Assembly: GCA_002421785.1 (NCBI GenBank)
Contig: DIRZ01000003.1
Coordinates: 250,700 to 282,699 of the forward strand
DNA: 32,000 nt
DNA from: Candidatus Saccharimonadota bacterium
Lineage (GTDB): Bacteria > Patescibacteriota > Saccharimonadia > Saccharimonadales > Saccharimonadaceae
Direction of reading: 5' to 3'
Shown in pieces: positions 4,339 to 27,487 of this stretch. The notes under the pieces are model-generated. The model made no database searches, had not been told where the DNA came from, and saw only the letters and a list, made by a program, of their open reading frames with translations. The position numbers were made by a program, and so were the translations under genes. How positions within the stretch are numbered: position 1 is the stretch's first letter; every line of letters starts with the position of its first letter.

Positions 4339-4378
4339 TTAGTGTAGTATTGACACTTTCTATTCTATGGTTCATACT
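4339..4378 (+). promoter_or_regulatory. nadE promoter overlapped by a candidate NrtR operator
   Basis: -35 TTGACA (4350-4355), 17-nt spacer, -10 CATACT (4373-4378). The 21-bp box TTAGTGT-AGTATTG-ACACTTT (4339-4359) covers the -35 element. Confidence 0.5.
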
Positions 4379-4424
4379 CGCAAGTGAAAAGGCTCAGCCC
4401 TTTGCCATTAACCAAGGAGGATAT

Positions 4425-5237
4425 ATGCGCAAACAACAGCACGACATCATTACAGAACTCGGCAGCCAGCCAACAATCGACCCCGCCTATGAAATAGCGC
4501 GCAGAACTGAGTTTCTCGCAAGCTACTTGGCGAACACTGGCTTAAAAGGCTACATACTGGGCATATCAGGCGGGCAAGACTCGTTACTGGCCGGCATCCT
4601 CGCAAAGCGTGCAGTGGAGCAACGGCGCGAACTTGGCGATGACGCAACATTCCATGCCGTGCTCCTGCCCTATGGCGAACAGGCAGACCGTGCCGATGCG
4701 CTCCTCGCCCTCGAGACCATCCAGCCAGACGTTACCCACGACATCAACATCAAACCTGCGACCGATGCATTCGTGGAGTCATTCAACAGCTTAGGCGACC
4801 GTCCGCTCACCGATTTCAACAAAGGTAATGTAAAAGCACGCATGCGGATGATTGCTCAGTACGCGCTCGCTGGCCAACATAAACTGCTCGTGCTCGGCAC
4901 CGATCACGCAGCCGAAGCGGTGACTGGCTTCTTCACGAAATTTGGTGACGGAGGAGCTGACGTCCTGCCGCTCTCCGGTCTTACGAAGCGGCAAGGCCGA
5001 CAAATGCTCGCACAGCTCGGTGTGCCCGAAGTGTTTATTCGTAAGCAGCCAACAGCCGATTTACTCGACGCTCGTCCTGGTCAGCCGGATGAAACCGAAC
5101 TTGCGCTAAGCTACGAAACCATCGACGATTACCTAGAAGGACGGTCTGTCGATGAGCGCGCGGCAGAACAAATCGAACAACGCTTTGCAGCCACTATCCA
5201 TAAGCGCAGTCTTCCCGTGGCTGCGCCTAGCCTGTAA
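4425..5237 (+). CDS. nadE: NH3-dependent NAD+ synthetase
   Basis: Start set to the ATG at 4425, preceded by AAGGAGG; the track start at 4350 is a TTG inside the promoter. The PP-loop motif GISGGQDS is present, and the ~270-aa length is typical of single-domain NadE. Confidence 0.9.
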   Translation: MRKQQHDIITELGSQPTIDPAYEIARRTEFLASYLANTGLKGYILGISGGQDSLLAGILAKRAVEQRRELGDDATFHAVLLPYGEQADRADALLALETIQPDVTHDINIKPATDAFVESFNSLGDRPLTDFNKGNVKARMRMIAQYALAGQHKLLVLGTDHAAEAVTGFFTKFGDGGADVLPLSGLTKRQGRQMLAQLGVPEVFIRKQPTADLLDARPGQPDETELALSYETIDDYLEGRSVDERAAEQIEQRFAATIHKRSLPVAAPSL

Positions 5238-5269: not shown

Positions 5270-5290
5270 TTAGTGTATGAAATACAGTAC
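5270..5290 (+). promoter_or_regulatory. weaker NrtR-box-like site overlapping the nrtR start codon
   Basis: TTAGTGT-ATGAAAT-ACAGTAC. The left arm is perfect and the right arm matches 5 of 7 positions. The ATG of nrtR lies at 5277, inside the spacer. Confidence 0.3.
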
Positions 5291-5954
5291 ACCTTATGTA
5301 CCCCCTACACTAACGGTTGACGCCGTCATCTTCCAATTGAACGGCACCGAACTCGAAGTACTGCTGACACAGCGACAAGAAGAGCCGTTTAAAGGGGAGT
5401 GGGCGCTACCCGGCGGCTACAACCCATCAGGTCAAACAACCCTCGAAGCCCTGTCGGCAATTGTTCGGCGCAAAGTCGGCCTTGACCTCGATGCCCAGCT
5501 TCCCTACATTGAGCAGCTGTATACCTTTGACACCGTTGCCCGTGACCCCCGTGGCCACGCAGTCTCGGTGACCTACATGGGCTGCGGCCGAGCCATCGAA
5601 CTAAGTGGTGGTAGCCAAAATGCAGAATTCTTCCCCGTCGACCGACTGCCTGGCCTGGCATACGACCATGAAAAGATTATCGAATATGCACGGGACCGCC
5701 TAGGCGCAAAGCTTACCTACACCAATGCCGTTTCTGGCCTACTGGAATCTAAATTTACTCTTAGCCAGCTACAGACCGCCTACGAAGCCGTCATGGGACG
5801 CGAAATCGATAAACGAAACTTCCGTAAAAAATTCCTGAGCCTTGGGCTCATTCACGAAACGCCAGACATGTGGCGCGAAGGCGCTCACCGCCCCGCTAAG
5901 CTCTACGCCTTCAACAACGAATCACTCGAAGTGCTCGCTCGTAGCTTCGAATAA
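5277..5954 (+). CDS. nrtR: NrtR-family Nudix-related transcriptional regulator (N-terminal Nudix-like domain + C-terminal winged helix)
   Basis: The Nudix-like N-domain contains GEWALPGG and a degenerate Nudix box. The C-terminal ~80 aa (FTLSQLQTAYEAVMGREIDKRNFRKKFLSLGLI) is the characteristic NrtR wHTH. It sits in an NAD gene cluster. Confidence 0.8.
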   Translation: MKYSTPYVPPTLTVDAVIFQLNGTELEVLLTQRQEEPFKGEWALPGGYNPSGQTTLEALSAIVRRKVGLDLDAQLPYIEQLYTFDTVARDPRGHAVSVTYMGCGRAIELSGGSQNAEFFPVDRLPGLAYDHEKIIEYARDRLGAKLTYTNAVSGLLESKFTLSQLQTAYEAVMGREIDKRNFRKKFLSLGLIHETPDMWREGAHRPAKLYAFNNESLEVLARSFE

Positions 5955-5958
5955 GCTC

Positions 5959-7512
5959 CTACGCGTCGTACGGTGTACGCTTTTGAGCCACAAGAAGTGT
6001 ATTTGTCGTGGGCTGCGGTAATTCGTTTAGCGATCCATCAACGCGCTCATACACACGACCTGCCGGTACGAACCGGTTGTCAATCAACCAAGGATTAGTG
6101 ATCCGACGTGAAGCGGCTGTCATAACAAAGCCTGCAGCTTCCAGCACCTCACACCACTCTTCGTGAGAGTAAAAGCAGAATTTTTCATGCATCTCACTCC
6201 GCCAGCTCGTCAAATAATCTTTTTTGGCCAAAAATTCACACAAGTCACCGTGCGACATCACTGCATACTCAGTGCCATCAACATACTCACGACGCACTAC
6301 AATACCATCACCTTCGTCCTGACGAAAATCACGCTCAAACCGACGAAGCCTCGCAGCAGTCGAGAGCGTCCCCAAAAAGCCAGCCAGTTCATCGCCCTCA
6401 AGCTCCCACTGCAGATCATCAGGATTTTCGCCATCATCACTTGTAGGCGCGAAGTATACTTCCTTTGTCCGATCATCTGGCCCGACCACATCGTAATTAA
6501 TGTAGACGCCTCCCGGGGCAAGCATATCGTGAGCGCGCGCAATAAACTGATGCAGTGCGTCGTGCCCCAGGTATGACTCCACTTCATGCGTCAACGCCAT
6601 CGTGATAACCGTCGTAAGAGACGCTGGCTTAAATAACTCACTCTGCATAATATTACGTTGGTAAAAATACACATTCGTGTCGCCAAATTCTCCGTTTGTC
6701 TTGCGCTGCTGGCAAATCTCGTAGAGTGGCCGTGCTGCTTCGACCCCATAGAAATCTGATTCGAATAACTCCGGGCGCTCGCCGAGCAACTTGATAGTCT
6801 GCCCAGTCGCACATCCCACATCAAGTATTTTGCCTGGCAGCACATAGTCAGCGAAGTCGTTCACTTTGCGCCACGCATTATCTTCGAATGCCGCACGGTA
6901 TGATGTATAGTCACGGGAAAGCGTAATATCACCGTCGTCCGACCCAATAAGGGGATCAGCGTAGATTGTTTGCACTAGCTCTGCCACAGCATATCGCTCG
7001 TAAAGCGTTTTGCACACTGGGTGCATCGCTTCGGTAATTGTCGGGTCAGCACTCCACTCAGGGCCACGCGCGATAATACGCCTCACGACATCCCAGGGCA
7101 TCTCGGCCCGAGATTCCTGCTCGACGGTCGCGATACCAAAGCCAAGGGATTCGTACTGCGCGATGACCGCATCAGTCGAGCATGCAACGATAGTGTTGTC
7201 TGGCCGCATATCCACGCGACCACTCGTCTGTGTGCGAATTTCTTCGATGAGGTAATGCGCAAAGTTGGAACGGTATCGTACGTTGCTAATCAGATACACT
7301 TGGCTCGGCAACTGCTCTACGGCTGCGACAGCTTCAATCATACCGAGTCGTCGCGCGCCTGCAATAGGGTTACGCTGCGTACCAGTATGATCTGCCGACG
7401 TCACAGCCCAAACGACCTCGGCATCTGGGTATTGCGCCAATAGGTTCTTCAGGTAGGCCGCCTGAAAACGCGTCACAAGGTGGTGCCGACCCGGTATCAG
7501 CACGTATTTCAC
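5959..7512 (-). CDS. fusion protein: archaeal-NMNAT (NadM)-like nucleotidyltransferase-fold domain + class I SAM-dependent methyltransferase
   Basis: GTG start overlapping the upstream stop (GTGA). The N-terminus MKYVLIPGRHHLVTRFQ...VWAVTSADHTGTQRNPIAGARRLGMI aligns by eye with archaeal NMNAT (GRFQPFHKGH...IGSAQ.SHT..NPFTAGER). The canonical H-x-G-H motif is not present. The C-terminal half has SAM motif I, ILDVGCATGQT. Confidence 0.75.
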   Translation of the reverse strand: MKYVLIPGRHHLVTRFQAAYLKNLLAQYPDAEVVWAVTSADHTGTQRNPIAGARRLGMIEAVAAVEQLPSQVYLISNVRYRSNFAHYLIEEIRTQTSGRVDMRPDNTIVACSTDAVIAQYESLGFGIATVEQESRAEMPWDVVRRIIARGPEWSADPTITEAMHPVCKTLYERYAVAELVQTIYADPLIGSDDGDITLSRDYTSYRAAFEDNAWRKVNDFADYVLPGKILDVGCATGQTIKLLGERPELFESDFYGVEAARPLYEICQQRKTNGEFGDTNVYFYQRNIMQSELFKPASLTTVITMALTHEVESYLGHDALHQFIARAHDMLAPGGVYINYDVVGPDDRTKEVYFAPTSDDGENPDDLQWELEGDELAGFLGTLSTAARLRRFERDFRQDEGDGIVVRREYVDGTEYAVMSHGDLCEFLAKKDYLTSWRSEMHEKFCFYSHEEWCEVLEAAGFVMTAASRRITNPWLIDNRFVPAGRVYERVDGSLNELPQPTTNTLLVAQKRTPYDA

Positions 7513-8519
7513 GAATTCTGTAACGCTCTCTGCGCAAATTCGTGCGATAGACGCGTCAATCGCTCGTAATCTTGCACCTGTTCGAACCCGGTAGGGGTCA
7601 CGAATTCACCCGATGCGTGCGCATTTGCCATCGTGCCAGCAATCGAAGCGATACTGTCGGTATCACCCCCCAGGTTAACCGCGTAGTTCACCGCGGTCGT
7701 GTAATCACCTCGGGCAGCCACCAGCACATCATAGGTCATCGCTACCGTACTAGGTACAAAAAATCCATAGCGTCCATTAGCATGCCCGATGGCGTAACGG
7801 CCAACGAGCTGTGTCAGCGACGTCACAGGAAAACGCATGGCGCGCTCAATTCGACCCTTTGGATCGGCGTTCGGTTCACTCGCCAGGACATCAAGCGCTT
7901 TCGTTCGGAACGCATCTAGCGATGCATCTGGATGTTCCAGTAGCCAATGTGTCACCTCGCCGTGTAGTCGCGTACACGCGCGAGCAATCTCACTATCATG
8001 CGTCATCGTGGTTAACTCGTCATACTGCTGCCGGCGTGTGGGCTCGTCAATTTGCCGAGCGACCTGCCAATAGACGAGAGGCGCCATCTTCATCAATATA
8101 CCGTTCCCGGCACCTTCTGGTTCTCCTGATTCAAGTGGGGACATGCCCGCTGCCATACGCTCCATGCTAGCAGTCGTCGACCCTCCCCAGCCGCGTACCG
8201 ACCACTCGCCTTTGTAGTTTTTGGTCTTCGTTATCGCATGGTATGCGCTCAAATGTGCTTCGGCTTGCGCATCGATATCAAACCCATCTGCTGCCAACAG
8301 GCCTTCGGCCACCGCAACTGACAACTGCGTGTCGTCGCTCGTCGTGCCAGCAGGGAAATTACCCGGGTAGTAGGGATTGTGAAGTGGTGGAATTAAATGG
8401 TCAAGCCGGCCATACCGCCCCGCAATTTCAGATGCTGACATCGTTTCAGTGGGGAGCCCCATTGCATCGCCATACGCAATCGAGGGTAATAACCGTTCGC
8501 CAACACGTTTCATCGTCAT
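7509..8519 (-). CDS. ADP-ribosylglycohydrolase family protein (DraG/ARH-like)
   Basis: Start set to the ATG at 8519, which forms an ATGA overlap with the upstream stop. Motifs AYGDAMGLPTE, TSDDTQL and GGDTDSIASIAG are the di-metal site signatures of the ARH family. Confidence 0.85.
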   Translation of the reverse strand: MTMKRVGERLLPSIAYGDAMGLPTETMSASEIAGRYGRLDHLIPPLHNPYYPGNFPAGTTSDDTQLSVAVAEGLLAADGFDIDAQAEAHLSAYHAITKTKNYKGEWSVRGWGGSTTASMERMAAGMSPLESGEPEGAGNGILMKMAPLVYWQVARQIDEPTRRQQYDELTTMTHDSEIARACTRLHGEVTHWLLEHPDASLDAFRTKALDVLASEPNADPKGRIERAMRFPVTSLTQLVGRYAIGHANGRYGFFVPSTVAMTYDVLVAARGDYTTAVNYAVNLGGDTDSIASIAGTMANAHASGEFVTPTGFEQVQDYERLTRLSHEFAQRALQNS

Positions 8520-9337
8520 GGTTGTGTGAGTCTTTCTGCAGCACTTGCCTGCGCCAGTAGTTCTTCGCCAGTATACCTTCTTCGGGCAGAAAGCTCTACC
8601 CATTTACCCTCGAATGGTGAGCTTGCAGGGTCAAACGGATATGTATAGCGCCGCCATTGCAACTTTTCGCGCACATCATGTGGGTCATCGGGGTTAACTC
8701 TCGTATAGTGAAGAATCGTACAATTGCGCAGTGCGTAGGTATGGTCTGCGTCTATCTTCTCCCACTCTTCGGGTGTCATTCGCTCAATGCCATAGCGTGC
8801 CGCATTAATGAAGTCGCCATGTGTCACCACGCAGACACGCTTGCCGGCCTGCTCACGGTGCAATGTTCCCTGAAAATCACGAAAGCGGGCGTATACATCC
8901 GGCATACTCTCGCCACCATCAAGGCGCGTGTACCATGGATTCTGCGCCTTCTCCTGGGCCGTCATAGGGAAAAGTGCACGCTGTTCGGCGGTCGGTCGCT
9001 TTCCATACACGCCCCAACTCCGTTCAACAACCCGGTCATCAATCGTCCAGCCACCCAGTTCCGGGCCACCAAGGCAGGCAGCCGTTTCACGGGTTCGGTA
9101 AAATGGCGAAACATACAATGCGTCAAACGACGCCAGGCCCCCGACATTCTCGTCAAGCCATCGTTTAGCTGTTTCTGCTTGCGCCACACCATTCTGCGTA
9201 AGACGGTGCTGCCAATCTGGCCTGCCAAAAATTGCCTGCACCGTGTTGTCATCCAGGCCATGGTCGTCACTCTTCTGAACAGTGTTCGCTTCAGACTGGC
9301 CGTGTCTGATAAAAATTAAGTCGTTAGGCATCGCCAT
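8516..9337 (-). CDS. histidine phosphatase superfamily protein (phosphoglycerate-mutase-like, branch 1)
   Basis: The catalytic motif LIFIRHGQSEAN (RHG) is present, together with RTRETA, ERSWG and VTHGDF. An AAAGGAG RBS precedes the ATG at 9337. Confidence 0.85.
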   Translation of the reverse strand: MAMPNDLIFIRHGQSEANTVQKSDDHGLDDNTVQAIFGRPDWQHRLTQNGVAQAETAKRWLDENVGGLASFDALYVSPFYRTRETAACLGGPELGGWTIDDRVVERSWGVYGKRPTAEQRALFPMTAQEKAQNPWYTRLDGGESMPDVYARFRDFQGTLHREQAGKRVCVVTHGDFINAARYGIERMTPEEWEKIDADHTYALRNCTILHYTRVNPDDPHDVREKLQWRRYTYPFDPASSPFEGKWVELSARRRYTGEELLAQASAAERLTQP

Positions 9338-9391: not shown

Positions 9392-9455
9392 ATAGTGTTG
9401 ACATTACAATAACTATTCGCTAGGATGAAGCTAGTAAGTGTATAAAGTACAATAA
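9392..9455 (+). promoter_or_regulatory. pnuC promoter with two candidate NrtR operators, in the divergent region shared with the histidine-phosphatase operon
   Basis: -35 TTGACA (9398-9403), 17-nt spacer, -10 TAGGAT (9421-9426). Box 1, ATAGTGT-TGACATT-ACAATAA (9392-9412), covers the -35 element. Box 2, TAAGTGT-ATAAAGT-ACAATAA (9435-9455), lies downstream of the -10 element. Confidence 0.5.
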
Positions 9456-9474: not shown

Positions 9475-10197
9475 ATGAAATTACAACTTAATCCTAAAGG
9501 TGCCAGCCTCACACGGCACATCACAGAAAGCATCATCATTGGTGTCGTACTGACATTCCTCTCCTATGCAGTCGGTATCTTTGCAGGCTGGCTCACCCCT
9601 GCCGGGCTTAACTGGCTTGAGGTATTCGCCGTCCTCACATCATATGCCTGTACCTATCTGTGTGTGGTTGAGCGACGCATCAACTACCCCATCGGTGCAA
9701 TCAGCTCGGCCGCCTATGCGGTGCTCTTTATGCAGAGCGGGTTGCTATCAAGCGCCATTCTGAACGCCTACTTGGCACCAACGCTCATTTACGGCTGGCT
9801 CCGTTGGCGCAAAGATGCCAATGCTCGCCCAGTTACTCACGTCGAGCTGAAGTGGCTTCCCGTGTACGTCATCGTGGCAGCCGCTGGGTATGTAGGCGCC
9901 AGCCTGATTAGCAAATCGTTTGGCGGGGCGATGGCCTGGACGGACTCGATCATATTGGCTGGGACTATCCTGGCACAGTTCTTGCTCGATAATAAAAAGC
10001 TTGAAAACTGGGCAGTGTGGGCTATGGTAAATGTCTTCGCTATCTACACCTACTGGACAATTGGCCTCCCACTTGTCGCCTTCCAGTACATCTTTTTCCT
10101 CGCAAACACCGTCTACGGCTATATCACCTGGAAGCGCAGCAAGGAGCAGGCTCATGAGACCTCAACCCTCAAAGAACCCGTCCTCACCGAAGCCTAA
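9475..10197 (+). CDS. pnuC: nicotinamide riboside transporter PnuC
   Basis: 240-aa polytopic membrane protein with W/Y-rich helices and a C-terminal motif FQYIFFLANTVYGYITW typical of PnuC. It lies directly upstream of RNK/NadR genes. Confidence 0.8.
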   Translation: MKLQLNPKGASLTRHITESIIIGVVLTFLSYAVGIFAGWLTPAGLNWLEVFAVLTSYACTYLCVVERRINYPIGAISSAAYAVLFMQSGLLSSAILNAYLAPTLIYGWLRWRKDANARPVTHVELKWLPVYVIVAAAGYVGASLISKSFGGAMAWTDSIILAGTILAQFLLDNKKLENWAVWAMVNVFAIYTYWTIGLPLVAFQYIFFLANTVYGYITWKRSKEQAHETSTLKEPVLTEA

Positions 10198-10762
10198 GTC
10201 CTTTACTATCACCATCTTTGGCGCCGAGTCGACTGGCAAAACGACACTCAGCCGTGAACTTGCGACAGTACTCGGTGCCCAGTGGCTGTACGAATTCGCC
10301 CGCCCCTACCTTGAGCTGACGAGTGCACCCATCACCCCCAGCTCGATGACGGCAATTTGGCACGGCCAGCAGGTGCTACAGACGATGCGCGAAGGCCATG
10401 TCATCGTGCAGGATACCGACCTGTTCTCAACAGTTGGATACTGGCAGTTCCCGCACTGGCACCCGGTCCTCGGCGACTGCCCCGCTGCGCTCATTCGTGA
10501 CGCCAAGCACCTTCAGTCAGACCTTTACCTTATTACGCCAAGCAACATCCCCTTCGAACATGACCCACTTCGCTACGGCGGGGATGCACGAGAAGGGACC
10601 GATGACTACTGGGTAGCGGTCTGTGAACAATATCAATTACCGTACGTCGTGCTGAACTCCAGCGACCCGTCAGCACGCGTCACCGAAGCACTCACTATTA
10701 TGCAAACAAAGGAGAATCTATGCGCGGCCTCGTCATTGGCAAATTTTACCCACCCCACCTAG
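10154..10762 (+). CDS. stand-alone NadR-C-terminal-like P-loop ATPase (putative ribosylnicotinamide kinase)
   Basis: Start set to the ATG at 10154, preceded by AAGGAG; the upstream part of the track ORF is an out-of-frame reading of pnuC. Walker A is FGAESTGKTTLSRELA and a Walker-B-like VQDTDL follows. It is a paralogue of the C-terminal domain of the next gene. Confidence 0.7.
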   Translation: MRPQPSKNPSSPKPKSFTITIFGAESTGKTTLSRELATVLGAQWLYEFARPYLELTSAPITPSSMTAIWHGQQVLQTMREGHVIVQDTDLFSTVGYWQFPHWHPVLGDCPAALIRDAKHLQSDLYLITPSNIPFEHDPLRYGGDAREGTDDYWVAVCEQYQLPYVVLNSSDPSARVTEALTIMQTKENLCAASSLANFTHPT

Positions 10763-11691
10763 GGCACAACTACCTCATCGATACAGCGCTAGCCAACAGC
10801 GACGAAGTTGACGTACTAGTCGTTGATAACCCCGCCTATCGTCTACCTGCCGCCAAGCGTGCAGCCTGGCTAAGAGCACGCCACCCAGCGGCCCATGTCA
10901 AAATCATCCCTGACATATATGATGATGCCAACTCAATCTCATGGGGCAAGCATACCATCGACTTCCTCGGGTACCGTCCGGACACCGTGTTTAGCTCTGA
11001 AGACTACGGCAAGCCGTGGGCAGATGCCATGAACTGCAAAAGCGTGCTCGTCGACCTGGATCGACTGACCTTTCCCGTGTCGGGCACCCTTGTCCGTCAG
11101 GATATGCTGAACTCGTGGCATATGCTATCTGACGAGACAAAAGCCGGCCTAGCCCTCCGCGTTGTCATCGTGGGTGCTGAATCAACTGGCACGACAACGC
11201 TTTCCCGTGACCTCGCCGCCGCGCTCCATGTGCCATGGGTCCCTGAAGTTGGTCGGTACTACACCGAATCAATTCTGACAGATGGCTACGAATGGCGTGA
11301 TGAGGACTTCTATCGAATCGGGCGATTGCAGCAACACTATGAAAACGAAATTGCCGCGCGGAGTAAGGGCGTCATCGTGTGCGACACGAATGCCGTCGCG
11401 ACAGAGCTATGGCAGCGGCGCTACATGGGCAAAACGACGTCTGAGATGCGCGAGATTGCTGCAAACGACAAAGCCGATCTGTACATCATCACCGGTGACG
11501 AGATACCCTTCGTGCAGGATGGCATCCGCGACGGCGAACACATCCGCCACCGCATGCACCGTTGGTTCCTGGCACACATTAAAAAATCCGGTATACCCTA
11601 CCTGGTAGTTACCGGTACGCCAGAGGAGCGCCTTGCCGCGGCACGCACTGCCGCCGAAGCAATGATTCGCGACAGACGCGTCATTACATAA
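10720..11691 (+). CDS. nadR: bifunctional NMN adenylyltransferase / ribosylnicotinamide kinase (NadR type, no HTH domain)
   Basis: The N-terminus GKFYPPHLGH is the nucleotidyltransferase G-x-F-x-P-x-H-x-G-H motif. The C-terminal domain has Walker A GAESTGTTTLSRDLA. An AAGGAG RBS is present, and the gene overlaps the previous gene by 43 nt. Confidence 0.85.
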   Translation: MRGLVIGKFYPPHLGHNYLIDTALANSDEVDVLVVDNPAYRLPAAKRAAWLRARHPAAHVKIIPDIYDDANSISWGKHTIDFLGYRPDTVFSSEDYGKPWADAMNCKSVLVDLDRLTFPVSGTLVRQDMLNSWHMLSDETKAGLALRVVIVGAESTGTTTLSRDLAAALHVPWVPEVGRYYTESILTDGYEWRDEDFYRIGRLQQHYENEIAARSKGVIVCDTNAVATELWQRRYMGKTTSEMREIAANDKADLYIITGDEIPFVQDGIRDGEHIRHRMHRWFLAHIKKSGIPYLVVTGTPEERLAAARTAAEAMIRDRRVIT

Positions 11692-11723: not shown

Positions 11724-11790
11724 TTAGTGTTGACTTTACACTAACAACGCGTTACACTCAGTTTATAAGTTAGTGTATATATCACACTAA
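11724..11790 (+). promoter_or_regulatory. pncA promoter with two perfect 21-bp palindromes (candidate NrtR operators)
   Basis: Box 1 is TTAGTGT-TGACTTT-ACACTAA (11724-11744) and box 2 is TTAGTGT-ATATATC-ACACTAA (11770-11790). The -35 TTGACT (11730-11735) lies inside box 1, followed by a 17-nt spacer and -10 TACACT (11753-11758). Confidence 0.6.
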
Positions 11791-11816
11791 CAATAAGAAT
11801 AAAGGAGTTGACCACT

Positions 11817-12539
11817 ATGAATACCCTCAAAGCCCCCCAAGTATACGGCGAAGTTATGCTAGGCAACATCGATGTGCAGAACGACTTCTGCCCTGGCGGC
11901 ACACTCGCCGTTAGGGATGGAGACAAAGTCGTAGGACCACTCAATGCTGTCGGTGAATTTGTCGCCGAGCATGACGGCTTCGTCTTTAATACAGGCGACT
12001 TCCACGATCCACGCACAGCACACTTCGACACAAACGGCGGCCCATGGCCTGTCCACTGCGTAGAGTACCGCGCCGGTGCAGCTTTTCACGAAGACCTGAC
12101 TATCCGTCCTAATGATAGCGTCGCCTACAAAGGCACAAGCCTGGTTGACGACGGCTACTCTGGTGCTGAAGCGGTTATCCAGCGCGGTCGCCTCGAGTCC
12201 ATCGTGTCAAACCTCCCCGCAAGCGAACGGACGATAGGTGCTGCGATTGAGCGCATTGAGCAAGTAACTGAACAGTACAAACGACGCCTGGCGGTGTTAA
12301 TCGGCGGACTTGCGACAGACTACTGTGTGAAGGCGACCGTTCTCGACGTACTCGCCATTACAAATCGGGAAACAACCGATGTTATTGTGCTCCGTGATGC
12401 AATTCGTGCCGTCAACATCAATGAAACAGACGGTGAAGATGCAATCAACGCGATGCTTGAAGCTGGCGCACTAGCAATGACAACTGAAGAAATTCTTGCG
12501 GGCGGCATCGTTATTGATCATACACGGCTGGAGCGCTAA
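11817..12539 (+). CDS. pncA: nicotinamidase (isochorismatase family)
   Basis: Start at the ATG at 11817, 9 nt after AAAGGAG. Motifs DVQNDFCPGGTLAV and the catalytic-Cys motif LATDYCVKAT are present. Confidence 0.85.
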   Translation: MNTLKAPQVYGEVMLGNIDVQNDFCPGGTLAVRDGDKVVGPLNAVGEFVAEHDGFVFNTGDFHDPRTAHFDTNGGPWPVHCVEYRAGAAFHEDLTIRPNDSVAYKGTSLVDDGYSGAEAVIQRGRLESIVSNLPASERTIGAAIERIEQVTEQYKRRLAVLIGGLATDYCVKATVLDVLAITNRETTDVIVLRDAIRAVNINETDGEDAINAMLEAGALAMTTEEILAGGIVIDHTRLER

Positions 12540-12549
12540 GGTGAGCGCT

Positions 12550-13851
12550 ATGAACAAACGCGAGACACCTTCCCTTTCCCAAGGCCTCGACTATTACAAA
12601 GCCACAATGGGGCAGGTTGAATTCGATAAACACCCCGACACAATCGTTACCTTTGAGCTAAAGAATCGTGGAGCCAACAAGCTATCGACCTACGTGACTC
12701 CTGAGCAGTTATCGGCACGACTAGCCGAGCTCCAGGACGGATGGAGCCCAGAAGAAGTTGCCTACCTGGCTGGCCTCACCAACCAAGACGGTGGTGCTCG
12801 CTTCACCCCAGAGTATCTCGACTTCCTCGCGGACAATCCACTTCCCCCCGTGCAGGTCGGCTATGATGAACACCATGAGCTTACCGTCAAAACGACTGGT
12901 GCGTGGCCGCTCGTGACCTTTTGGGAAACAGTCGTGATGAGCGAGCTTAATGAGCTCTACTTCGCTGGCAAATTAGCCGCAGAAGGCAGCTCACTCGATG
13001 AACTTTATGCCGAAGGCGAACGGCGTCTTGATAGCAAGATCGCCACGCTCCGCGACCGACCTGATATTAAATTTTCAGACTTCGGTACACGCCGACGCTT
13101 CAGCTACGACTGGCAGAAGCACGTTATCGAACGTGTCGCCCAGGAGCTACCTAGCCAATTCCTTGGTACCTCAAACATTTTCCTGGCGCATGAGCTCAAC
13201 CTGAAACCAATCGGCACCTACGCACACGAGATGCCCATGGTATACGGCGCCATCGAACAAATGAATGGCAACGACCCGCTCGACGGTCATCACAAAATGC
13301 TCCGCGACTGGGAAACGACCCACCGTGGCGACCTTGCAACTGCGTTGACCGATACCTGGACAACTGACTACTTCTTCACCGACTTCACCCCAGAACAAGC
13401 CGAAGCTTGGGGCGGCCTACGACACGATTCTGGTGACCCATTTGAATTCGGCGAACGTGTTATTACGTTTTACCAGCAATACAATATCGATCCACGCGCC
13501 CACACCATTGTCTACAGTGACGGCCTCGACATCGACATGATTGTCGCCCTGGCAGACCGCTTTAGGGGCCGCGTCAATCTCGTGTTTGGCTGGGGCACTA
13601 CGCTCACCAACGACCTGGGGGTTAAAGCGAACAACTTCGTCATGAAAGCCACTACAGTTGCAGAAGCCTCCCTGCCGCAGTACGAGCAAGGTACCGTCAA
13701 GCTGAGTGACGCCGAAGGCAAGCACATGGGCAGCCCTGAAGATGTCGAACTCTATGGACAACGCGTCAAACGTGCTGTCGCCATGGGCGCTCGAGCCTAC
13801 CAGTTGAGTGTCGCGAATAACGCACATGAAAAACAGCTGGTGGCTGTATGA
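12550..13851 (+). CDS. pncB: nicotinate phosphoribosyltransferase
   Basis: Start at the ATG at 12550, after AAGGTGA. Motifs YYKATMGQ, DFGTRRRFS, GTYAHEMPM, SDGLD and FGWGTTLTND are typical of PncB. Confidence 0.85.
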   Translation: MNKRETPSLSQGLDYYKATMGQVEFDKHPDTIVTFELKNRGANKLSTYVTPEQLSARLAELQDGWSPEEVAYLAGLTNQDGGARFTPEYLDFLADNPLPPVQVGYDEHHELTVKTTGAWPLVTFWETVVMSELNELYFAGKLAAEGSSLDELYAEGERRLDSKIATLRDRPDIKFSDFGTRRRFSYDWQKHVIERVAQELPSQFLGTSNIFLAHELNLKPIGTYAHEMPMVYGAIEQMNGNDPLDGHHKMLRDWETTHRGDLATALTDTWTTDYFFTDFTPEQAEAWGGLRHDSGDPFEFGERVITFYQQYNIDPRAHTIVYSDGLDIDMIVALADRFRGRVNLVFGWGTTLTNDLGVKANNFVMKATTVAEASLPQYEQGTVKLSDAEGKHMGSPEDVELYGQRVKRAVAMGARAYQLSVANNAHEKQLVAV

Positions 13852-15329
13852 AGTGTCCCGAACTTCGCGCAAACACAGCGAACGTCGAACTACCAACTCA
13901 TGAGGAGCAAGAGGGCTTTCTTGCCCTTGGCCTTACTACTGATAACAATGGACGCCCTTTGCACCCATGGCGCTACGATATCCCCGACCTGCCCTCCACC
14001 AAAGGCGATTTATGGAAATGGGGACCAAATTATACTGTAGACCCCATCGTTCTGTCCCAGGACAACGACGGTCCAGTAATACTGCTTATCCAGCGAGGCG
14101 ACTGCGGACAATGGGCGCTACCTGGCGGCTTTGTCGATAGTGGCGAAAACCCCCTCGAAGCAGCGCGCCGCGAGCTCCGCGAAGAAACCAGTTTGGAGAT
14201 CACGGACGGTGAGTCGACGGCACATGTTTGCTATCAAGGGCCAGTCCACGACAGACGAAGCACCATGTACGCATGGCCAGAAACGACATCGATCTTGATG
14301 CATGTCCCTACCGCGCCCGTTGCCGCTGGGGATGATGCCATGACCGCCCAATGGGTGCCCCTAAAAGACGTCCGCCTACTGCCGGGCCTTTATGGGTCAC
14401 ATGGTACACTAATTGATATGGCAATTCGAGACAGCGGTACATTTCATGAGCAACTCGAATACTTTAGTAACCAAGTTGAGTTTAGCCAACCTACTGGTGG
14501 GCACATGGGCTACACTCGGCACATCGCATCACTACCCACAGGCAGGCGCGTATTCATTAAGCGGCACGACGCCGACAAGTTCACCGATGAGACGCGCGCT
14601 CAACATTCAAAACGCTATCTACACAAGGAGCATCACGTCTACCAGCAGCTATCAGACACATCCCCTCATACTCCTGACCACATTGAATTGACTAATGACA
14701 GTACTCTGCTGCTCGAAGCATACGACCCACGTGATGGATGGCAGTGGAAAGCACCACTGGACATTACTGAGCGTAGACGATATATCCATGAAGTAATCGA
14801 GGCTCTGCGCACCATTGAACCTGCGAGGTATGAGCCATTTGTTGACGTAAAACCGTCATATCATACGATTATCGATGAGGGTTGGGGCGCCTACCCTACA
14901 GCCCGCACACGCATTATCGAAAAGCTGCACAGATCCTCAGTCGAAGGAGCCCGGGCACTTGCCGATAGCCTGGATGAGCTATACGAACGTACTCAGCATC
15001 TCCCGTCACCAGAGCTTACCCACTTCGCTCATTATGACGTCCGCCAATCAAACATCGCCTGGCATCCCGAGCATGGCGTACGCATTGTTGATTGGAGTTG
15101 GGCGGATCCCGCCCCTAAAGGCGTAGATACCACGAGCTTTCTGATTGACATACATAAAGCCGGATATTCTATCGATGAGCATATGCCGGATTTTAATGCC
15201 GAACACGCACTGATACTTATAGGATTCTGGCTAGGCCACAGCATATGGCCGACACCAACACACGATCAAACCGTTCGCGAGCATCAAATCAGTTCAGCGG
15301 TTGCCGCTTTTCAGCTACTTAACCAGTAG
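13848..15329 (+). CDS. fusion protein: NUDT9-like Nudix (ADP-ribose pyrophosphatase-like) + protein-kinase-like/APH-fold phosphotransferase
   Basis: ATGA overlap with the pncB stop. The N-terminal half has KWGPNYTVDPIVL (NUDT9-type upstream motif, from memory) and the Nudix box GGFVDSGENPLEAARRELREETSL. The C-terminal half has FIKRHD (putative beta3 Lys), catalytic loop HYDVRQSNIAW (H-x-D-x4-N) and metal-binding IVDWSWA. Confidence 0.8.
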   Translation: MKCPELRANTANVELPTHEEQEGFLALGLTTDNNGRPLHPWRYDIPDLPSTKGDLWKWGPNYTVDPIVLSQDNDGPVILLIQRGDCGQWALPGGFVDSGENPLEAARRELREETSLEITDGESTAHVCYQGPVHDRRSTMYAWPETTSILMHVPTAPVAAGDDAMTAQWVPLKDVRLLPGLYGSHGTLIDMAIRDSGTFHEQLEYFSNQVEFSQPTGGHMGYTRHIASLPTGRRVFIKRHDADKFTDETRAQHSKRYLHKEHHVYQQLSDTSPHTPDHIELTNDSTLLLEAYDPRDGWQWKAPLDITERRRYIHEVIEALRTIEPARYEPFVDVKPSYHTIIDEGWGAYPTARTRIIEKLHRSSVEGARALADSLDELYERTQHLPSPELTHFAHYDVRQSNIAWHPEHGVRIVDWSWADPAPKGVDTTSFLIDIHKAGYSIDEHMPDFNAEHALILIGFWLGHSIWPTPTHDQTVREHQISSAVAAFQLLNQ

Positions 15330-15342
15330 TAGCGGCTGAGGC

Positions 15343-17364
15343 CTACAACTGTCGAACAAATTCCTGGAATTCTCCCTCAGAGATAACTTTCGTTCCATAG
15401 CGCTTAGCTTTCGCAAGCTTACTCGCCCCAACCTTACCGCCTGCAACAAGGTATGTCGTATCCTTCGCGACAGAACTTTGAAATACTCCGCCCTGCGCGC
15501 GAATCATTTCTGCTGCTTCATCGCGCGTCATTGATTCTAGACTACCCGTAATGACAAAGCTCTGCCCGACGAGCTTGCCCGATTTTGGTGTATAGTGAGG
15601 CACAACGCCAAGCAGGTTAAATTTTTCAAGCAATGCCATATTGTCATCGTCCGCAAACCACGCCGCGATACTTTCCGCAACAACGACACCGATACCGTCA
15701 ACATCAGTCAGTTGATCAAGGGTTGATTGCGCTAAAATATCGAGAGATTTAAACCGAGCAACCAAATCAATAGCTGTCTGAACGCCAACGTGGCGGATGC
15801 CCAGGCCAAAAAGAAATCGTTCAAGTGGCGGCTGTTTCTTCTCAGCAATCGCATCAATAAGCTTACGTGCCGAAATATCCCCAAAGCGATCAATCTGCAA
15901 CAGATCTTCCACAGAAAGCGTGTAAATATCAGCCAAATCTTTCACCAGACCGGCATCGACAAGCGCCACCACATTTTTCTCGCCGAGTGTGTCAATGTCA
16001 AGAGCACCTTTGCTCGCAAAATGTTGAAGCGCTCGCTTTAGAATCAATGGTCCCGTAAGGCCTTTTACTCGGTACACCACCTCGCCCTCTGGGCGCTCAA
16101 ACTCCAACTCCGGGTACTGCCTGGCAAGCTCGGCGTTGTAGTCAATGGGTTGCGCATCAACCTGCCGTAGGTCTGTAATGACGCCTTCGACTTGCGGAAT
16201 AATATCCCCGGCCTTAAAAATAACAACCGTGTCTCCACGACGAATGTCCAAACGCGCAATTTCGTCGGCGTTGTGCAGACTGGCGTGCCGAACGGTCGTA
16301 CCCGCCACTTGTACAGGATCGAAAACTGCAACGGGAGTAGCGGCACCTGTGCGGCCAATCGAGATAACGATATCACGCACTACTGTTGTCGCCTGCTCGG
16401 CGGCATATTTATAAGCAACCGCACCACGGGGTTGCTTACCAACAATTCCAAGTTTATTATAGAGATCGCGGTCATTAACTTTAACGACAAGTCCATCTGT
16501 ATTAAAAGGTAGCTCGTGTCGGGCATCATCCCAATGACGCACAAAAGACATCACATCATGTAACGAGGTGAATACCGCTGCCTCCGGATTACGAGTAATG
16601 CCAAGTGCCGTCAGCGCCTCGTAGGCGAACATATTCGTTGGCACCTCGTCAGCATGATCACGAATGAGGTCGTATCCTCGAAAATGAAGCGGTCGGCTCG
16701 CCACCAGTGCCGGGTCAAGCTGACGTACCGTACCCGCTGATAGGTTACGCGGGTTAGCAAACTCGGGCTTTCCTGCTGCGCGTTGCTGCTCATTCAGCGC
16801 AGCAAAATCTTTCTTCAACATCACCACTTCTCCTCGAATTTCCGTACGCCCCTCAAGAAAACCCTCATACCCAGCCGCGCGCCTGAGGCGGAGAGGTACG
16901 TTCTTTATGGTACGGACATTGGCAGTCACATCTTCGCCCTCATAGCTATCACCACGAGTAACCGCCTGCCGCAAAATACCATCTTCGTAGATAAGCGCAC
17001 AGGCAAGGCCATCCATCTTGATATCAGCAAAAAACTCATGCCTTACACCGGGTAGCTGTTTATCAATTCGTTTTACCCATGCCTCGACCTCTGCCGTGTC
17101 AAACACATCATTCAAACTGATCATTCGCGTGCGATGCCTTACTTTTGCAAAACCATCCAGTAACTTGTTACCAACTCGCTGAGTGGGGCTATCGGGCGTA
17201 ACAAGCTCAGGATGTTCACGTTCAATGGTCTTTAATTCGCCAAACAGTCCGTCGTAAACTGCATCGCTGACACTCGGCTGGTCGAGCACATGATATTCAT
17301 AGCTATAGCGCTCGATAACCTGGCGAAGCTCTGCAACGCGATCACTAGGCTGGTTTTGCGTCAT
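15343..17364 (-). CDS. ligA: NAD+-dependent DNA ligase
   Basis: 673 aa. The adenylation motif is DIKMDGLA (KxDG). OB, Zn, HhH and C-terminal BRCT-like regions follow in the typical order. Confidence 0.95.
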   Translation of the reverse strand: MTQNQPSDRVAELRQVIERYSYEYHVLDQPSVSDAVYDGLFGELKTIEREHPELVTPDSPTQRVGNKLLDGFAKVRHRTRMISLNDVFDTAEVEAWVKRIDKQLPGVRHEFFADIKMDGLACALIYEDGILRQAVTRGDSYEGEDVTANVRTIKNVPLRLRRAAGYEGFLEGRTEIRGEVVMLKKDFAALNEQQRAAGKPEFANPRNLSAGTVRQLDPALVASRPLHFRGYDLIRDHADEVPTNMFAYEALTALGITRNPEAAVFTSLHDVMSFVRHWDDARHELPFNTDGLVVKVNDRDLYNKLGIVGKQPRGAVAYKYAAEQATTVVRDIVISIGRTGAATPVAVFDPVQVAGTTVRHASLHNADEIARLDIRRGDTVVIFKAGDIIPQVEGVITDLRQVDAQPIDYNAELARQYPELEFERPEGEVVYRVKGLTGPLILKRALQHFASKGALDIDTLGEKNVVALVDAGLVKDLADIYTLSVEDLLQIDRFGDISARKLIDAIAEKKQPPLERFLFGLGIRHVGVQTAIDLVARFKSLDILAQSTLDQLTDVDGIGVVVAESIAAWFADDDNMALLEKFNLLGVVPHYTPKSGKLVGQSFVITGSLESMTRDEAAEMIRAQGGVFQSSVAKDTTYLVAGGKVGASKLAKAKRYGTKVISEGEFQEFVRQL

Positions 17365-25820: not shown

Positions 25821-26381
25821 CTAAAAAACGAGGTCGACCGGATCGGCAATCGAGAAGGCATCCGCATACACCCATTCGTATCGCTCAAGACATTGTGTCA
25901 CGATGTGGGTATATATCTCATATACATCCTCGAGCGCCGTGCCGCTCGCAACTTCACATTGCAATTCAGGAAGCGTCAGCCAACGAATGTCGTCCGCCTC
26001 GCCCTCTGCCTGAGCCCGGGCTGGAATCGCTCGCGCAATAAATGCATAGCATAAATCTGAATGGTAATGCTCAGCATTCACTCGGTGCGTATTTACAAGT
26101 AGGGGCACCGGGTGTATGACAGCATGCTCAAGAGTCGGCAACTGCTTCGTCGGCTGCAGCACGCTCAACTCATTCAGTTGATACCCTGTTTCCTCTGCCA
26201 ACTCATGTGCCAAGGCTGCCCAAGGTGTTTCGGCGAGCTCAATGTGACCTCCAGCCTGCATGAGCTTTCCAAGTTTGCGATGCATGTGCACTAGAACGAG
26301 CGGCTCATCATCCTGCATACGCACAATGTACGCGCTTACAGTAATGTCATGTTGGCCATCGAGTGTGTGGATATGCGGCAT
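25821..26381 (-). CDS. Nudix hydrolase (stand-alone)
   Basis: Nudix box GGHIELAETPWAALAHELAEETGY. Substrate unknown. Confidence 0.75.
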   Translation of the reverse strand: MPHIHTLDGQHDITVSAYIVRMQDDEPLVLVHMHRKLGKLMQAGGHIELAETPWAALAHELAEETGYQLNELSVLQPTKQLPTLEHAVIHPVPLLVNTHRVNAEHYHSDLCYAFIARAIPARAQAEGEADDIRWLTLPELQCEVASGTALEDVYEIYTHIVTQCLERYEWVYADAFSIADPVDLVF

Positions 26382-26384
26382 TGA

Positions 26385-27305
26385 TTATTCCTTCAGTTTA
26401 CCCTGCTGAGCGACTACCGTCGACTTTGGCCGGCACGCAGGTGAGTGATATAACAGTGCCGGCGTTTTCTTGCATGTGTCACATATGAGCACCAGCTCAT
26501 TACAGCTCGGGTCGGCGCAGTTTTCAAAATTACTCGTACTTGCGCCACAGTGGACACAGGATCCGATAACCGCGGTGTGGTCGCTAAAATTGACAGTCAT
26601 ACGCTTGTCAAACACCCTGAGGCTTCCTTCCCACAGGCCATCATCTCCGTATGCTTCGCCGTACTTCACAATACCGCCGTCGATTTGATAAATATCTTTG
26701 AAGCCACGCTTCTTCATCATACTGCTAATTACTTCGCAGCGGATTCCGCCCGTGCAATACGTAATGACTTTTTTATTTTTAATGTCGTCATACTTATCGC
26801 TTTCAAGCTCGGCAATAAAATCCCGGCTGGTCGTGGTATTTGGGACGACTGCATTTTTAAACTTACCAATTTTTGCCTCGTGCGCATTTCTTCCATCAAA
26901 AAACACGACATCATCGCCATATTTTTCAATAAGCTCATGCACCTGTGCTGGTTTAAGATGCGTGCCCCCACCAACAACGCCGTTTTCATCTACTTCAAAC
27001 TCATCATCGCTATTTTTAAAACCGACCAATTCCCGCCGAGCGCGCACGCTAAGCCGTGGGAAGTCGTCACGACTACCCTCGCTCCATTTCCACACGATAT
27101 CCCGAAAGCCCGCATACTGCTTGGTCGCTTTAACATACGCCTTAAGGTCTTCTATATCACCACCCACCGTACCATTCAAGCCATGCCGGCTCACGAGAAT
27201 CCTACCTCGCAAGTTCAGGCCTTCACATAACGATTTTTGCCACAACTTTACCGCCTCCGGGTCGGGAATCGGGGTAAATTTGTAGTACAGAAGAATCTTT
27301 TGCAT
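26385..27305 (-). CDS. trhO: rhodanese-domain protein TrhO/YceA (tRNA U34 hydroxylase family, UPF0176)
   Basis: Start at the ATG at 27305 ([10 protein letters not shown]...). It has the rhodanese active-site loop YCTGGIRCE and a C-terminal Cys cluster CVHCG...C..PSC.....CDTC. Confidence 0.8.
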
Positions 27306-27487
27306 ATATCCATTGTACCGCAATACTACCCCTGTTGTAAACGCAAGTGCTCATACACGTTGCATCATCTTGGTGTATTTAGTATACTTATAACACTATG
27401 AACTTGCGCTAGTTCCTCTACTCGTGAATGTTGGGACGGCCTAACCACTTGCGATACAAACAACTAAGAGAAAGGTTTTATTAACAC

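Follow-up and report, generated by a model that had tools for sequence, protein, structure and literature searches.

Nucleotidyltransferases share three motifs, HxGH, Gx(D/N) and xxSSTxxR, which the group conserves and on which ATP stabilisation and catalysis critically depend (PMC3509593), the first of them being given also in the form H/TxGH (PMC8745210). In plants, nicotinate methyltransferases serve as homeostasis and detoxification valves of the Preiss-Handler pathway (PMC13510662), and in bacteria the regulon of the NAD regulator NrtR includes the unexplained genes nrtX-nrtY, reported in the arrangement nrtR<>X-Y (Rodionov et al. 2008, PMC2330246). Here we examine one gene, hereafter the target, in a 32,000-nucleotide stretch of DNA (the window) from a Candidatus Saccharimonadota bacterium (assembly GCA_002421785.1, contig DIRZ01000003.1, positions 250,700 to 282,699). 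The target codes for a protein in which a domain resembling the nicotinamide mononucleotide (NMN) adenylyltransferases (NMNATs) of archaea is fused to a class I S-adenosylmethionine (SAM) methyltransferase, within an island of NAD genes.

This fusion was put forward in an original prediction made by eye from the sequence, and the observation is confirmed. The strings quoted in it were all located: GRHHLVTRFQ at residues 8-17, V.A.TSA..TGT..NPI.G..R at residues 33-55 (VVWAVTSADHTGTQRNPIAGARR) and ILDVGCATGQT at residues 229-239. The GTG start codon is backed by the N-termini of homologues (MKY/MNY/MRY) and by its overlap, as GTGA, with the stop codon of the upstream gene. The architecture is new and both constituent folds are known. 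Literature searches retrieved no publication on such a fusion, which PMC2330246 does not mention (0 occurrences of "methyltransferase"). The annotation of these proteins is today limited to "class I SAM-dependent methyltransferase": source names of the members are "methyltransferase" or "hypothetical", with the exception of the IMG label of one distant subfamily, and an identical protein recorded for "Candidatus Saccharibacteria bacterium 32-50-10" is labelled "hypothetical protein" only. The N-terminal domain (residues 1-185) has no match in Pfam, PHROGs or PADLOC. The target thus belongs to an unstudied fusion family, with an N-terminal domain lacking a Pfam model, that is found across several phyla and in at least one eukaryote.

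An NMN adenylyltransferase fold with altered motifs

In the nucleotidylyltransferase fold, the nucleotide crevice lies at the C-termini of the strands of a Rossmann-like alpha/beta sheet. The AlphaFold model of residues 1-185, built from a 23-sequence alignment with a mean predicted local distance difference test score (pLDDT) of 91, contains five parallel strands (residues 3-8, 32-38, 70-75, 107-111 and 126-129). Its top Foldseek matches in the PDB are all NMNATs of Methanothermobacter thermoautotrophicum or Methanocaldococcus jannaschii (E 8e-7 to 1e-5), with template modelling (TM) scores of 0.64-0.71 relative to the query (TMq) and 0.70-0.77 relative to the matched PDB structure (TMt); the best of these matches, at E 8e-7, has TM scores of 0.69-0.77. 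NadM, PPAT and NadD rank next, followed by cytidylyltransferases. In total, 42 PDB structures matched at E<=1e-3 and, among the matches listed, all belong to the nucleotidylyltransferase superfamily; the anticipated nucleotidyltransferase fold is therefore upheld.

Support at the sequence level is weaker than the structural support but consistent with it. The NCBIfam models of archaeal NMN adenylyltransferase, PRK01153 (E 1.4e-3, 18.3 bits; cut-off 127) and TIGR01527 (E 7e-3, 15.9 bits; cut-off 181.2), give scores to the domain that fall far under the curated archaeal NMNAT/NadM cut-offs (about 16-18 versus 127-181 bits). A search of PDB sequences with the family profile placed MJ0541 and the M. 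thermoautotrophicum NMNAT within the top five (E 0.2-1.6), in an alignment pairing GRHHLVTRFQ with GRFQPFHKGH, and hhalign matched the domain with archaeal NMNAT at E 6.7e-5. When three distant family members were included as intermediates, MAFFT aligned the domain collinearly, end to end, with both archaeal enzymes, whose two sequences were checked against the PDB. The resemblance proposed for residues 1 to about 190 accordingly goes far beyond chance, and the domain is a true homologue of archaeal NMNAT.

Comparison of the motifs, with archaeal residues numbered as in the M. thermoautotrophicum enzyme, distinguishes two sides of the pocket. On the ATP side, HxGH is lost according to the alignments, GRFQPxHxGH having become GRHHLVTRFQ as had been noticed at the outset, and T14-R-F16-Q17 stands in place of the motif. 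The Thr at the first position is acceptable; the Gly and the second His have given way to other residues throughout the family, the former to a bulky residue in most members. The C-terminal ISSTxxR-type motif is likewise missing, as predicted: in the MAFFT alignment M-P-W-D-V-V faces S-G-T-E-V-R136, and the position of the Arg is V, L or M in every aligned member. Neither the second His nor the SxTxxR Arg is present in any member examined, in a family spanning 27-74% identity. At the Gx(D/N) site after strand 4, where the window C-S-T aligns with archaeal S-G-N, the target reads C-S-T-D, distant members SSNP, SANR or SSTP, and archaeal NMNAT SGNP. The ATP-side substitutions at HxGH and SxTxxR are family-wide and so represent an old, fixed state. 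Mutations at R11, H19 and R136 are carried by PDB entries 1m8f/g/j/k.

The original prediction had also allowed that GRHH might supply the His residues, an idea that the alignments do not support: G8-R9 pairs with archaeal G10-R11, and H10 and H/Q11 face M12 and Q13 instead of the histidines of catalysis. Close homologues have H or Q at position 11, echoing the Q of GRFQ, and neither position 10 nor position 11 is conserved in the wider family.

On the other side of the pocket, R9, T38-S39, R47, P49, R55, a D or N at 77 and an aromatic residue at 84 are kept. R9 and R47 of the window protein correspond to archaeal R11 and R47, and T38-S39-A40...R47-N48-P49 aligns with G-S39-A...R47-D-P. N77 occupies the position of D80 and F84 that of W87, distant members having D...W there, and W153 aligns with the terminal Trp of archaeal NMNAT. 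R11, the GSA...R47-[D/N]-P loop, D80 and W87 form the mononucleotide side of the pocket, where D80 and W87 are reported to hold NMN. Distant members, which read GRFHALTRGQ, D...W and SSNP, make descent from an enzyme of the GRFQPxHxGH type plain.

Since mononucleotide-side residues are largely kept and ATP-side ones lost, we read the domain as a binding module rather than an adenylyltransferase. We infer that it binds a pyridine nucleotide and lacks catalytic activity. Of the two roles initially considered for it, a nucleotide-binding sensor or substrate-binding domain fits these family-wide patterns of loss and retention better than an active transferase does.

The methyltransferase half and the family

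Pfam detects class I methyltransferase models alone, at residues 216-343, and Methyltransf_23, Methyltransf_25 and Methyltransf_11 exceed their gathering scores, which bears out the predicted fusion partner. Conservation of D231-x-G233-x-x-x-G237, E258 and N287 extends through the whole family. The class I SAM methyltransferase of the C-terminal part is intact and has a lid of its own, in which many aromatic and acidic residues are invariant. The conserved linker between the two halves is modelled at low confidence over residues 188-200, so that it may itself be a mobile lid.

Matches to this half are generic. Foldseek with the full-length model and a PDB search with the profile of the methyltransferase and lid region retrieved only generic small-molecule class I enzymes; phmmer with the whole protein against PDB sequences gave weak methyltransferase matches only, and PHROGs and PADLOC generic methyltransferase matches only. 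No nicotinamide or nicotinate N-methyltransferase family (NNMT/PNMT, plant NANMT) appears among the Pfam, NCBIfam or PDB matches. With matches of this kind, the substrate could not be inferred from the methyltransferase.

Two alternative readings take individual matches at face value. The first is an RNA- or DNA-modifying or phage-defence methyltransferase whose N-terminal domain binds an NAD-derived signal or NAD-capped nucleic acid. The core weakly matches PADLOC mad2 (E 2.9e-9) and a PHROG tRNA methyltransferase, METTL6 is among the Foldseek matches, and in Salana and Arachnia the target stands beside transposases or restriction-modification-like genes. These PADLOC, PHROG and METTL6 matches are, however, confined to the generic SAM-binding core, and the context in Saccharibacteria and others is metabolic and operator-controlled; we regard this reading as very improbable. 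The second would make the N-terminal domain a nucleotidyltransferase for another phospho-substrate, such as a phospho-alcohol cytidylyltransferase, acting with a phosphoethanolamine-N-methyltransferase-like domain on a head group of the CDP-choline type. Phosphoethanolamine N-methyltransferases and CTP:phosphocholine cytidylyltransferase do occur among the Foldseek matches, but cytidylyltransferases reach a TMq of only 0.40-0.50, well under that of the NMNATs, the same catalytic motifs would be required and are missing, and the recurrent linkage to nrtR, pncA, pncB and nadE would be left unexplained. We give this proposal very little credence as well.

A search with the whole protein yielded 669 relatives, and among the first 120 nearly every one is 493-544 amino acids long with the same Pfam pattern, three being N-terminally truncated (439-451 amino acids). 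When the profile of the N-terminal domain was run against 1.84 billion representative proteins, it recovered no more than 211 clusters and stopped short of canonical NMNATs; from this search, all of the 22 longer members retrieved (428-994 amino acids) carry N-terminal domain, linker, methyltransferase and lid. Scanning one genome per species revealed 62 loci in Saccharibacteria, Actinobacteria (Tessaracoccus, Arachnia, Timonella, Populibacterium, Ruaniaceae, Jonesiaceae and Acidimicrobiales), many Leptospira and other spirochaetes, Planctomycetes, Bacteroidota (Agriterribacter, Flaviaesturariibacter and Cytophagales), Elusimicrobia and a few oddly labelled metagenome-assembled genomes. An exact look-up of two Tessaracoccus proteins gave no match. 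A member from Naegleria lovaniensis (P0218, XP_044554412, 641 amino acids) is encoded on an 813-kb contig, and P0205 (994 amino acids, with Ala-rich insertions) is a further eukaryotic or eukaryote-like member. Such members suggest horizontal transfer, or an origin older than the bacterial distribution implies.

Conservation was assessed over 28 members with 27-74% identity. In the N-terminal domain P49 and R55 are invariant, R9, T38, S39 and G124 nearly so, and T/S14, Q17 and R47 are found in most members; conserved residues elsewhere are D186, G194, R200, Y205 and K216 in the linker, D231, G233, C234, G237, N287, H309, E310, S313, Y314 and D341 in the methyltransferase core, and F427, Y433, W437, E440 and E443 in the lid. 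Mean pairwise identity among close homologues is 55% for the N-terminal domain, 54% for the lid and 75% for the core, and in the broad set 30%, 33% and 43%, respectively. Being as conserved as the lid, the N-terminal domain is under selection and not decaying. In the alignment of close homologues, invariant residues after strands 1, 2, 4 and 5 occupy the first positions past the strand, that is, the nucleotide crevice, and those after strand 3 reach E90, within the helix 84-95.

Archaeal NMNATs are hexamers, and the N-terminal domain might accordingly serve as a structural or oligomerisation scaffold for a methyltransferase whose substrate is unrelated to pyridine nucleotides, the NAD linkage reflecting co-regulation only. 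The generic similarities of the methyltransferase would agree with this, as would loci without NAD context in Leptospira, Planctomycetes and several Actinobacteria. Against it, the best-conserved residues of the domain are polar or charged and lie in the nucleotide-crevice loops rather than on a generic surface, and linkage to nrtR recurs across several arrangements and phyla, which leaves a pure scaffold improbable.

NAD salvage context and predicted NrtR control

The NAD-metabolism context pointed out from the window, where nadE, nrtR, pnuC, pncA and pncB share one island with the target, extends beyond it. We surveyed the neighbourhood by phmmer, searching 68 fetched loci with the window proteins; in 30 of 67 loci an NrtR homologue lay no more than 6 kb from the target. 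The linkage spans Saccharibacteria, Actinobacteria, Bacteroidota, Elusimicrobia and Spirochaetes, with differing arrangements. In Saccharibacteria, (phosphatase-)target and pncA-pncB(-Nudix) diverge from each other, and nrtR-nadE lies downstream. In Actinobacteria nrtR is directly upstream of the target on the same strand (4 loci), in Elusimicrobia it is directly downstream, and in Bacteroidota it is divergent from the target and abuts it (2 loci). One spirochaete has a single operon nrtR-Band_7-NAD-kinase-like-target. The remotest subfamily, from soil metagenomes (30% identity; loci L069-L071), has the target as the first gene of an operon target-nrtR-pncA-pncB-nadE. By this repeated and independent gene linkage, the family is tied to NAD salvage.

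A 21-bp palindrome, TTAGTGT-N7-ACACTAA, supports the connection. It occurs in 9 copies in the window against 1.0 expected (4339-4359, 5270-5313, 9392-9455, 11724-11790 and 27370-27399), placed upstream of nadE, at the start of nrtR, twice before pncA, twice in the phosphatase/pnuC region, and at 27370-27399. In the 68 related loci there are 84 copies against 4 expected, and the motif often immediately precedes the target or the phosphatase-target pair, as it does in many Saccharibacteria; it also stands before the spirochaete operon. Judging from its placement, the palindrome is probably the NrtR operator of Saccharibacteria. Operator placement and recurrent nrtR linkage together make the target a predicted member of the NrtR regulon.

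Other occurrences of the palindrome were recorded. It is also found at an Elusimicrobia locus and other loci; the window copy at 27370-27399 is flanked by a TrhO-like gene (26385-27323, minus strand) and by one for an ABC transporter (27488-29263, plus strand); and a copy precedes 4 of the 5 saccharibacterial NadD-like genes, whose loci also contain nadE. The palindrome within the nrtR coding region of Bacteroidota loci was judged to represent conserved coding sequence and was rejected as an operator. At locus L004 (9601-12427) an operator copy directly 3' of the target is followed by a gene for a PP2C_2-like phosphatase and then by one for a 626-amino acid protein with a weak zinc-ribbon match, an equivalent region being present at L008-L010, L012, L030, L045 and L051; both genes are candidate further members of the NrtR regulon.

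Gene neighbours recur in other lineages too. Adjoining nrtR-target at L006, L018, L029, L031, L033 and L060 (and L035) are a gene of the Band_7/SPFH type and a divergent NAD-kinase-like one; the pair, found in Actinobacteria and one spirochaete, is in most cases oriented divergently from nrtR. The NAD-kinase-like neighbour matches PDB 1yt5 (E 2.4e-5) and has no Pfam match, and the two genes are probably the nrtX-nrtY of Rodionov et al. (2008). NAD neighbours are absent in Propionibacteriaceae and Salana (L002 and L003, from Salana and Arachnia), where an Aminotran_1_2 aminotransferase gene recurs beside the target, and transposases or restriction-modification-like genes lie near the target in Salana and Arachnia. 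The neighbours in Leptospira (thiolase, LpxA-like, epimerase and ABC exporter genes) reflect lineage synteny and were set aside as uninformative.

The composition of these loci bears on the suggestion that the N-terminal domain is a divergent but active NaMN/NMN adenylyltransferase (NaMN, nicotinic acid mononucleotide). The protein would then be bifunctional, T14/Q17 and the extra arginines R54/R55 taking the place of HxGH and SxTxxR and the domain covering the step that links PncB to NadE, with the methyltransferase as a second NAD-related activity comparable to the Nudix of NadM or the riboside kinase of NadR. The L069-L071 operon covers every Preiss-Handler step except that of NaMN adenylyltransferase (NaMNAT) and has no nadD; likewise, no NadD was found in the 32-kb window, though PncA, PncB and NadE are encoded in its NAD island. 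Strong conservation of the active-site loops, the sequence GRFHALTRGQ kept by a distant member and close to GRFQPxHxGH, and the name that IMG gives to that subfamily speak in the same direction. The second His and the SxTxxR Arg are nevertheless missing from all members examined, the Gly is bulky in most, and the lost motifs are critical in studied nucleotidyltransferases (PMC3509593). Moreover, NadD-like genes with intact motifs share loci with the target in five Saccharibacteria and one actinobacterium, in the latter adjoining rsfS, and a canonical NadR-type NMNAT, its GKFYPPHLGH and SGTLVRQ intact, is already encoded in the window. The family also occurs in Leptospira and Tessaracoccus without NAD-related neighbours, and both are presumably equipped with NadD. 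The idea of the original prediction that the domain is the missing NaMN adenylyltransferase is thus weakened by the NadD-like genes in the same loci and kept alive by the nadD-less window and the target-nrtR-pncA-pncB-nadE operon; we consider it unlikely, though a serious competitor to the binding module.

Within the window, the ATGA and GTGA overlaps join the phosphatase, ADP-ribosylglycohydrolase (ARH) and target genes into one operon, of which the target is, by sequence, the translationally coupled last gene (Table 1).

Table 1. Coordinates of the target, its segments, neighbouring genes and related features (window positions unless a locus is named)
Feature	Position	Strand	Remarks
Target, whole open reading frame (ORF), 517 amino acids	5959..7512	minus	GTG start 7512-7510, stop 5961-5959; NMNAT-like domain and class I SAM methyltransferase
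N-terminal domain, residues 1-185	6958..7512	minus	NMN-adenylyltransferase fold, five parallel strands; model, Foldseek, alignment
Degenerate (H/T)xGH region GRHHLVTRFQ, residues 8-17	7462..7491	minus	R9 = R11; T14 for H16; F16 for G18; Q17 for H19
Most conserved N-domain loop WAVTSADHTGTQRNPIAGARR, residues 35-55	7348..7410	minus	= IGSAQxSHxxR47[D/N]PFTAGER; P49, R55 invariant family-wide
Post-strand-3 segment N77..F84..H86	7255..7284	minus	= archaeal D80..N84..W87; D and W in distant members
Site of lost SxTxxR, MPWDVVRR, residues 138-145	7078..7101	minus	R136 equivalent hydrophobic in whole family
Conserved linker and methyltransferase N-terminal helix, residues 186-222	6847..6957	minus	DPLIGSDDGDITLSRDY..YR.AFED.AWRKV
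Class I SAM methyltransferase core, residues 223-345	6478..6846	minus	Motif I, E258 after strand 2, N287, THE..SY 308-314
Motif I ILDVGCATGQT, residues 229-239	6796-6828	minus	
Family-specific C-terminal lid, residues 346-517	5962..6477	minus	F427, Y433, E440, E443 invariant; W437 nearly so
nadE	4350-5237	plus	
nrtR (Nudix and NrtR winged helix)	5277-5954	plus	Convergent with target; stop 4 nt from target stop
ARH gene	7509..8519	minus	Stop overlaps target start (GTGA)
Histidine phosphatase (branch 1) gene	8516..9337	minus	First gene of operon; stop overlaps ARH start (ATGA)
Two predicted NrtR operator copies, TTAGTGT-N7-ACACTAA	9392-9412, 9435-9455		Between phosphatase-ARH-target operon and divergent pnuC
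pnuC	9475-10197	plus	
Riboside-kinase-like ORF	10031-10762	plus	
NadR-like NMNAT-kinase gene	10720-11691	plus	
pncA	11808-12539	plus	
pncB	12496-13851	plus	
Nudix fusion	13848-15329	plus	
ligA	15343-17364	minus	
Saccharibacterial NadD-like genes	L016 11805-12407; L030 19214-19810; L034 14225-14827; L055 4216-4806; L062 15933-16523		GGAFNPPTLAH (TxxH-type), SSTEVR

The island holds further genes of related families. As had been remarked, the ADP-ribose (ADPR)-type Nudix domain sits in a separate fusion; in this 493-amino acid protein the NadM-like Nudix domain spans about residues 60-190, and the C-terminal part has a faint thiamine-kinase-like match. Its gene is the third of a pncA-pncB-Nudix operon conserved at many Saccharibacteria loci. 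Two AAA_28 (ribosylnicotinamide-kinase-like) domains lie in tandem, one in the stand-alone ORF, whose listed start overlaps pnuC, and one in the NadR-like NMNAT-kinase, which is devoid of the NadR helix-turn-helix domain. The window is unusually rich in Nudix genes, including one for a stand-alone Nudix hydrolase (25821-26381, minus strand) and one for a second protein with winged-helix and Nudix domains (29338-30045, plus strand), in which the winged helix is N-terminal, an order opposite to that of NrtR.

Proposed role and comparison with known systems

We propose that the target encodes a methyltransferase acting in nicotinate/nicotinamide salvage, in which the domain derived from NMNAT binds a pyridine (di)nucleotide rather than adenylylating it, a reading to which we assign about an even chance. 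The domain would have descended from an NMN adenylyltransferase of the NadM/archaeal type, with loss of the residues that bind and activate ATP, and would bind NaMN, NMN, nicotinic acid adenine dinucleotide (NaAD), NAD or ADP-ribose. A metabolite of the nicotinamide/nicotinate branch would receive a methyl group from SAM, and the NMNAT-derived domain would either present the nucleotide substrate to the methyltransferase or gate its activity by nucleotide level. Release of NrtR from its operators would raise expression of the target together with that of other salvage genes. The gene thus probably points to a methylation step, or a point of control, that has not been described before in NAD metabolism. 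A more specific form of the proposal, in which a new NAD enzyme makes a methylated derivative of nicotinate or nicotinamide (for example from nicotinate, NaMN, NMN or ADP-ribose) with the dead NMNAT domain used for capture or gating, is only tentative.

Several points weigh against the salvage methyltransferase with a binding domain. The proposed substrate draws on sequence and gene context, and the methyltransferase resembles small-molecule class I enzymes only in a generic way, without specific orthology. Target loci in Leptospira, Planctomycetes, Tessaracoccus and Arachnia have no NAD-related neighbours. Both the window and the L069-L071 operons have PncB and NadE without a NaMN adenylyltransferase, which fits an active transferase equally well. 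The Thr that opens the motif does not conflict with catalysis, given the H/TxGH form, and Q17, which is E, V or F in a few members, cuts both ways: not being strictly invariant, it speaks against a catalytic role, yet it also means that the site is not part of the conserved core. At the second position, an amide side chain might take over part of the role of His, as with the TyrRS His48 mutants.

Bacterial NAD salvage is regarded as well mapped, but this conserved member of the regulon has no assigned reaction. If the proposal is true, it would add a new NrtR-controlled branch, for overflow, detoxification or signalling, to Preiss-Handler salvage in at least six bacterial phyla and Naegleria, and would provide a clear case of an NMNAT converted to a ligand-binding module; should the methyltransferase act on a salvage intermediate, both a new metabolite and a new control point would follow. 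Saccharibacteria are ultra-small epibionts reliant on scavenged vitamins, and a new control point would matter especially in these bacteria, whose island clusters almost all NAD genes. If instead the domain were active without HxGH and SxTxxR, the catalytic essentials of the superfamily would need revising and the NaMNAT gap in target-nrtR-pncA-pncB-nadE would be filled. Either outcome would assign a function to proteins now named only for their methyltransferase class.

The closest described relatives of the N-terminal half are the archaeal NMNATs (M. thermoautotrophicum 1EJ2/1M8x; M. jannaschii MJ0541, 1F9A; TIGR01527/PRK01153) and the N-terminal domain of NadM, with which it shares fold and strand order (TM 0.64-0.77). 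Collinearity with the archaeal enzymes covers the entire domain, including the G-R ending strand 1, the S-A...R-[D/N]-P loop, the D/N and aromatic residue after strand 3, the G[FY] before strand 5 and the terminal Trp. The target differs from them in having T-R-F-Q for HxGH and xPWxxV for SGTxxR, and in an 11-residue insertion before strand 4.

Like NadM and NadR, the target joins an NMNAT-type domain to a second enzyme of NAD metabolism under an NAD regulator, but the NMNAT domain of these proteins is catalytic with HxGH and SxTxxR, both of which the target has lost. The C-terminal partner also differs from that of NadM, being a methyltransferase and not an ADP-ribose pyrophosphatase (Nudix); the NadM-like Nudix is found in the ORF at 13848-15329. 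SAM-dependent methylation on the salvage branch has its counterpart in the nicotinamide N-methyltransferase of animals and in the nicotinate N- and O-methyltransferases of plants, which form trigonelline and methyl nicotinate. This is a functional analogy only: these enzymes are single-domain proteins with no nucleotide-binding module, and their sequence relation to the target is limited to the class I fold. Within the NrtR regulon itself, the nearest parallel is offered by nrtX and nrtY, which, like the target, are unexplained members.

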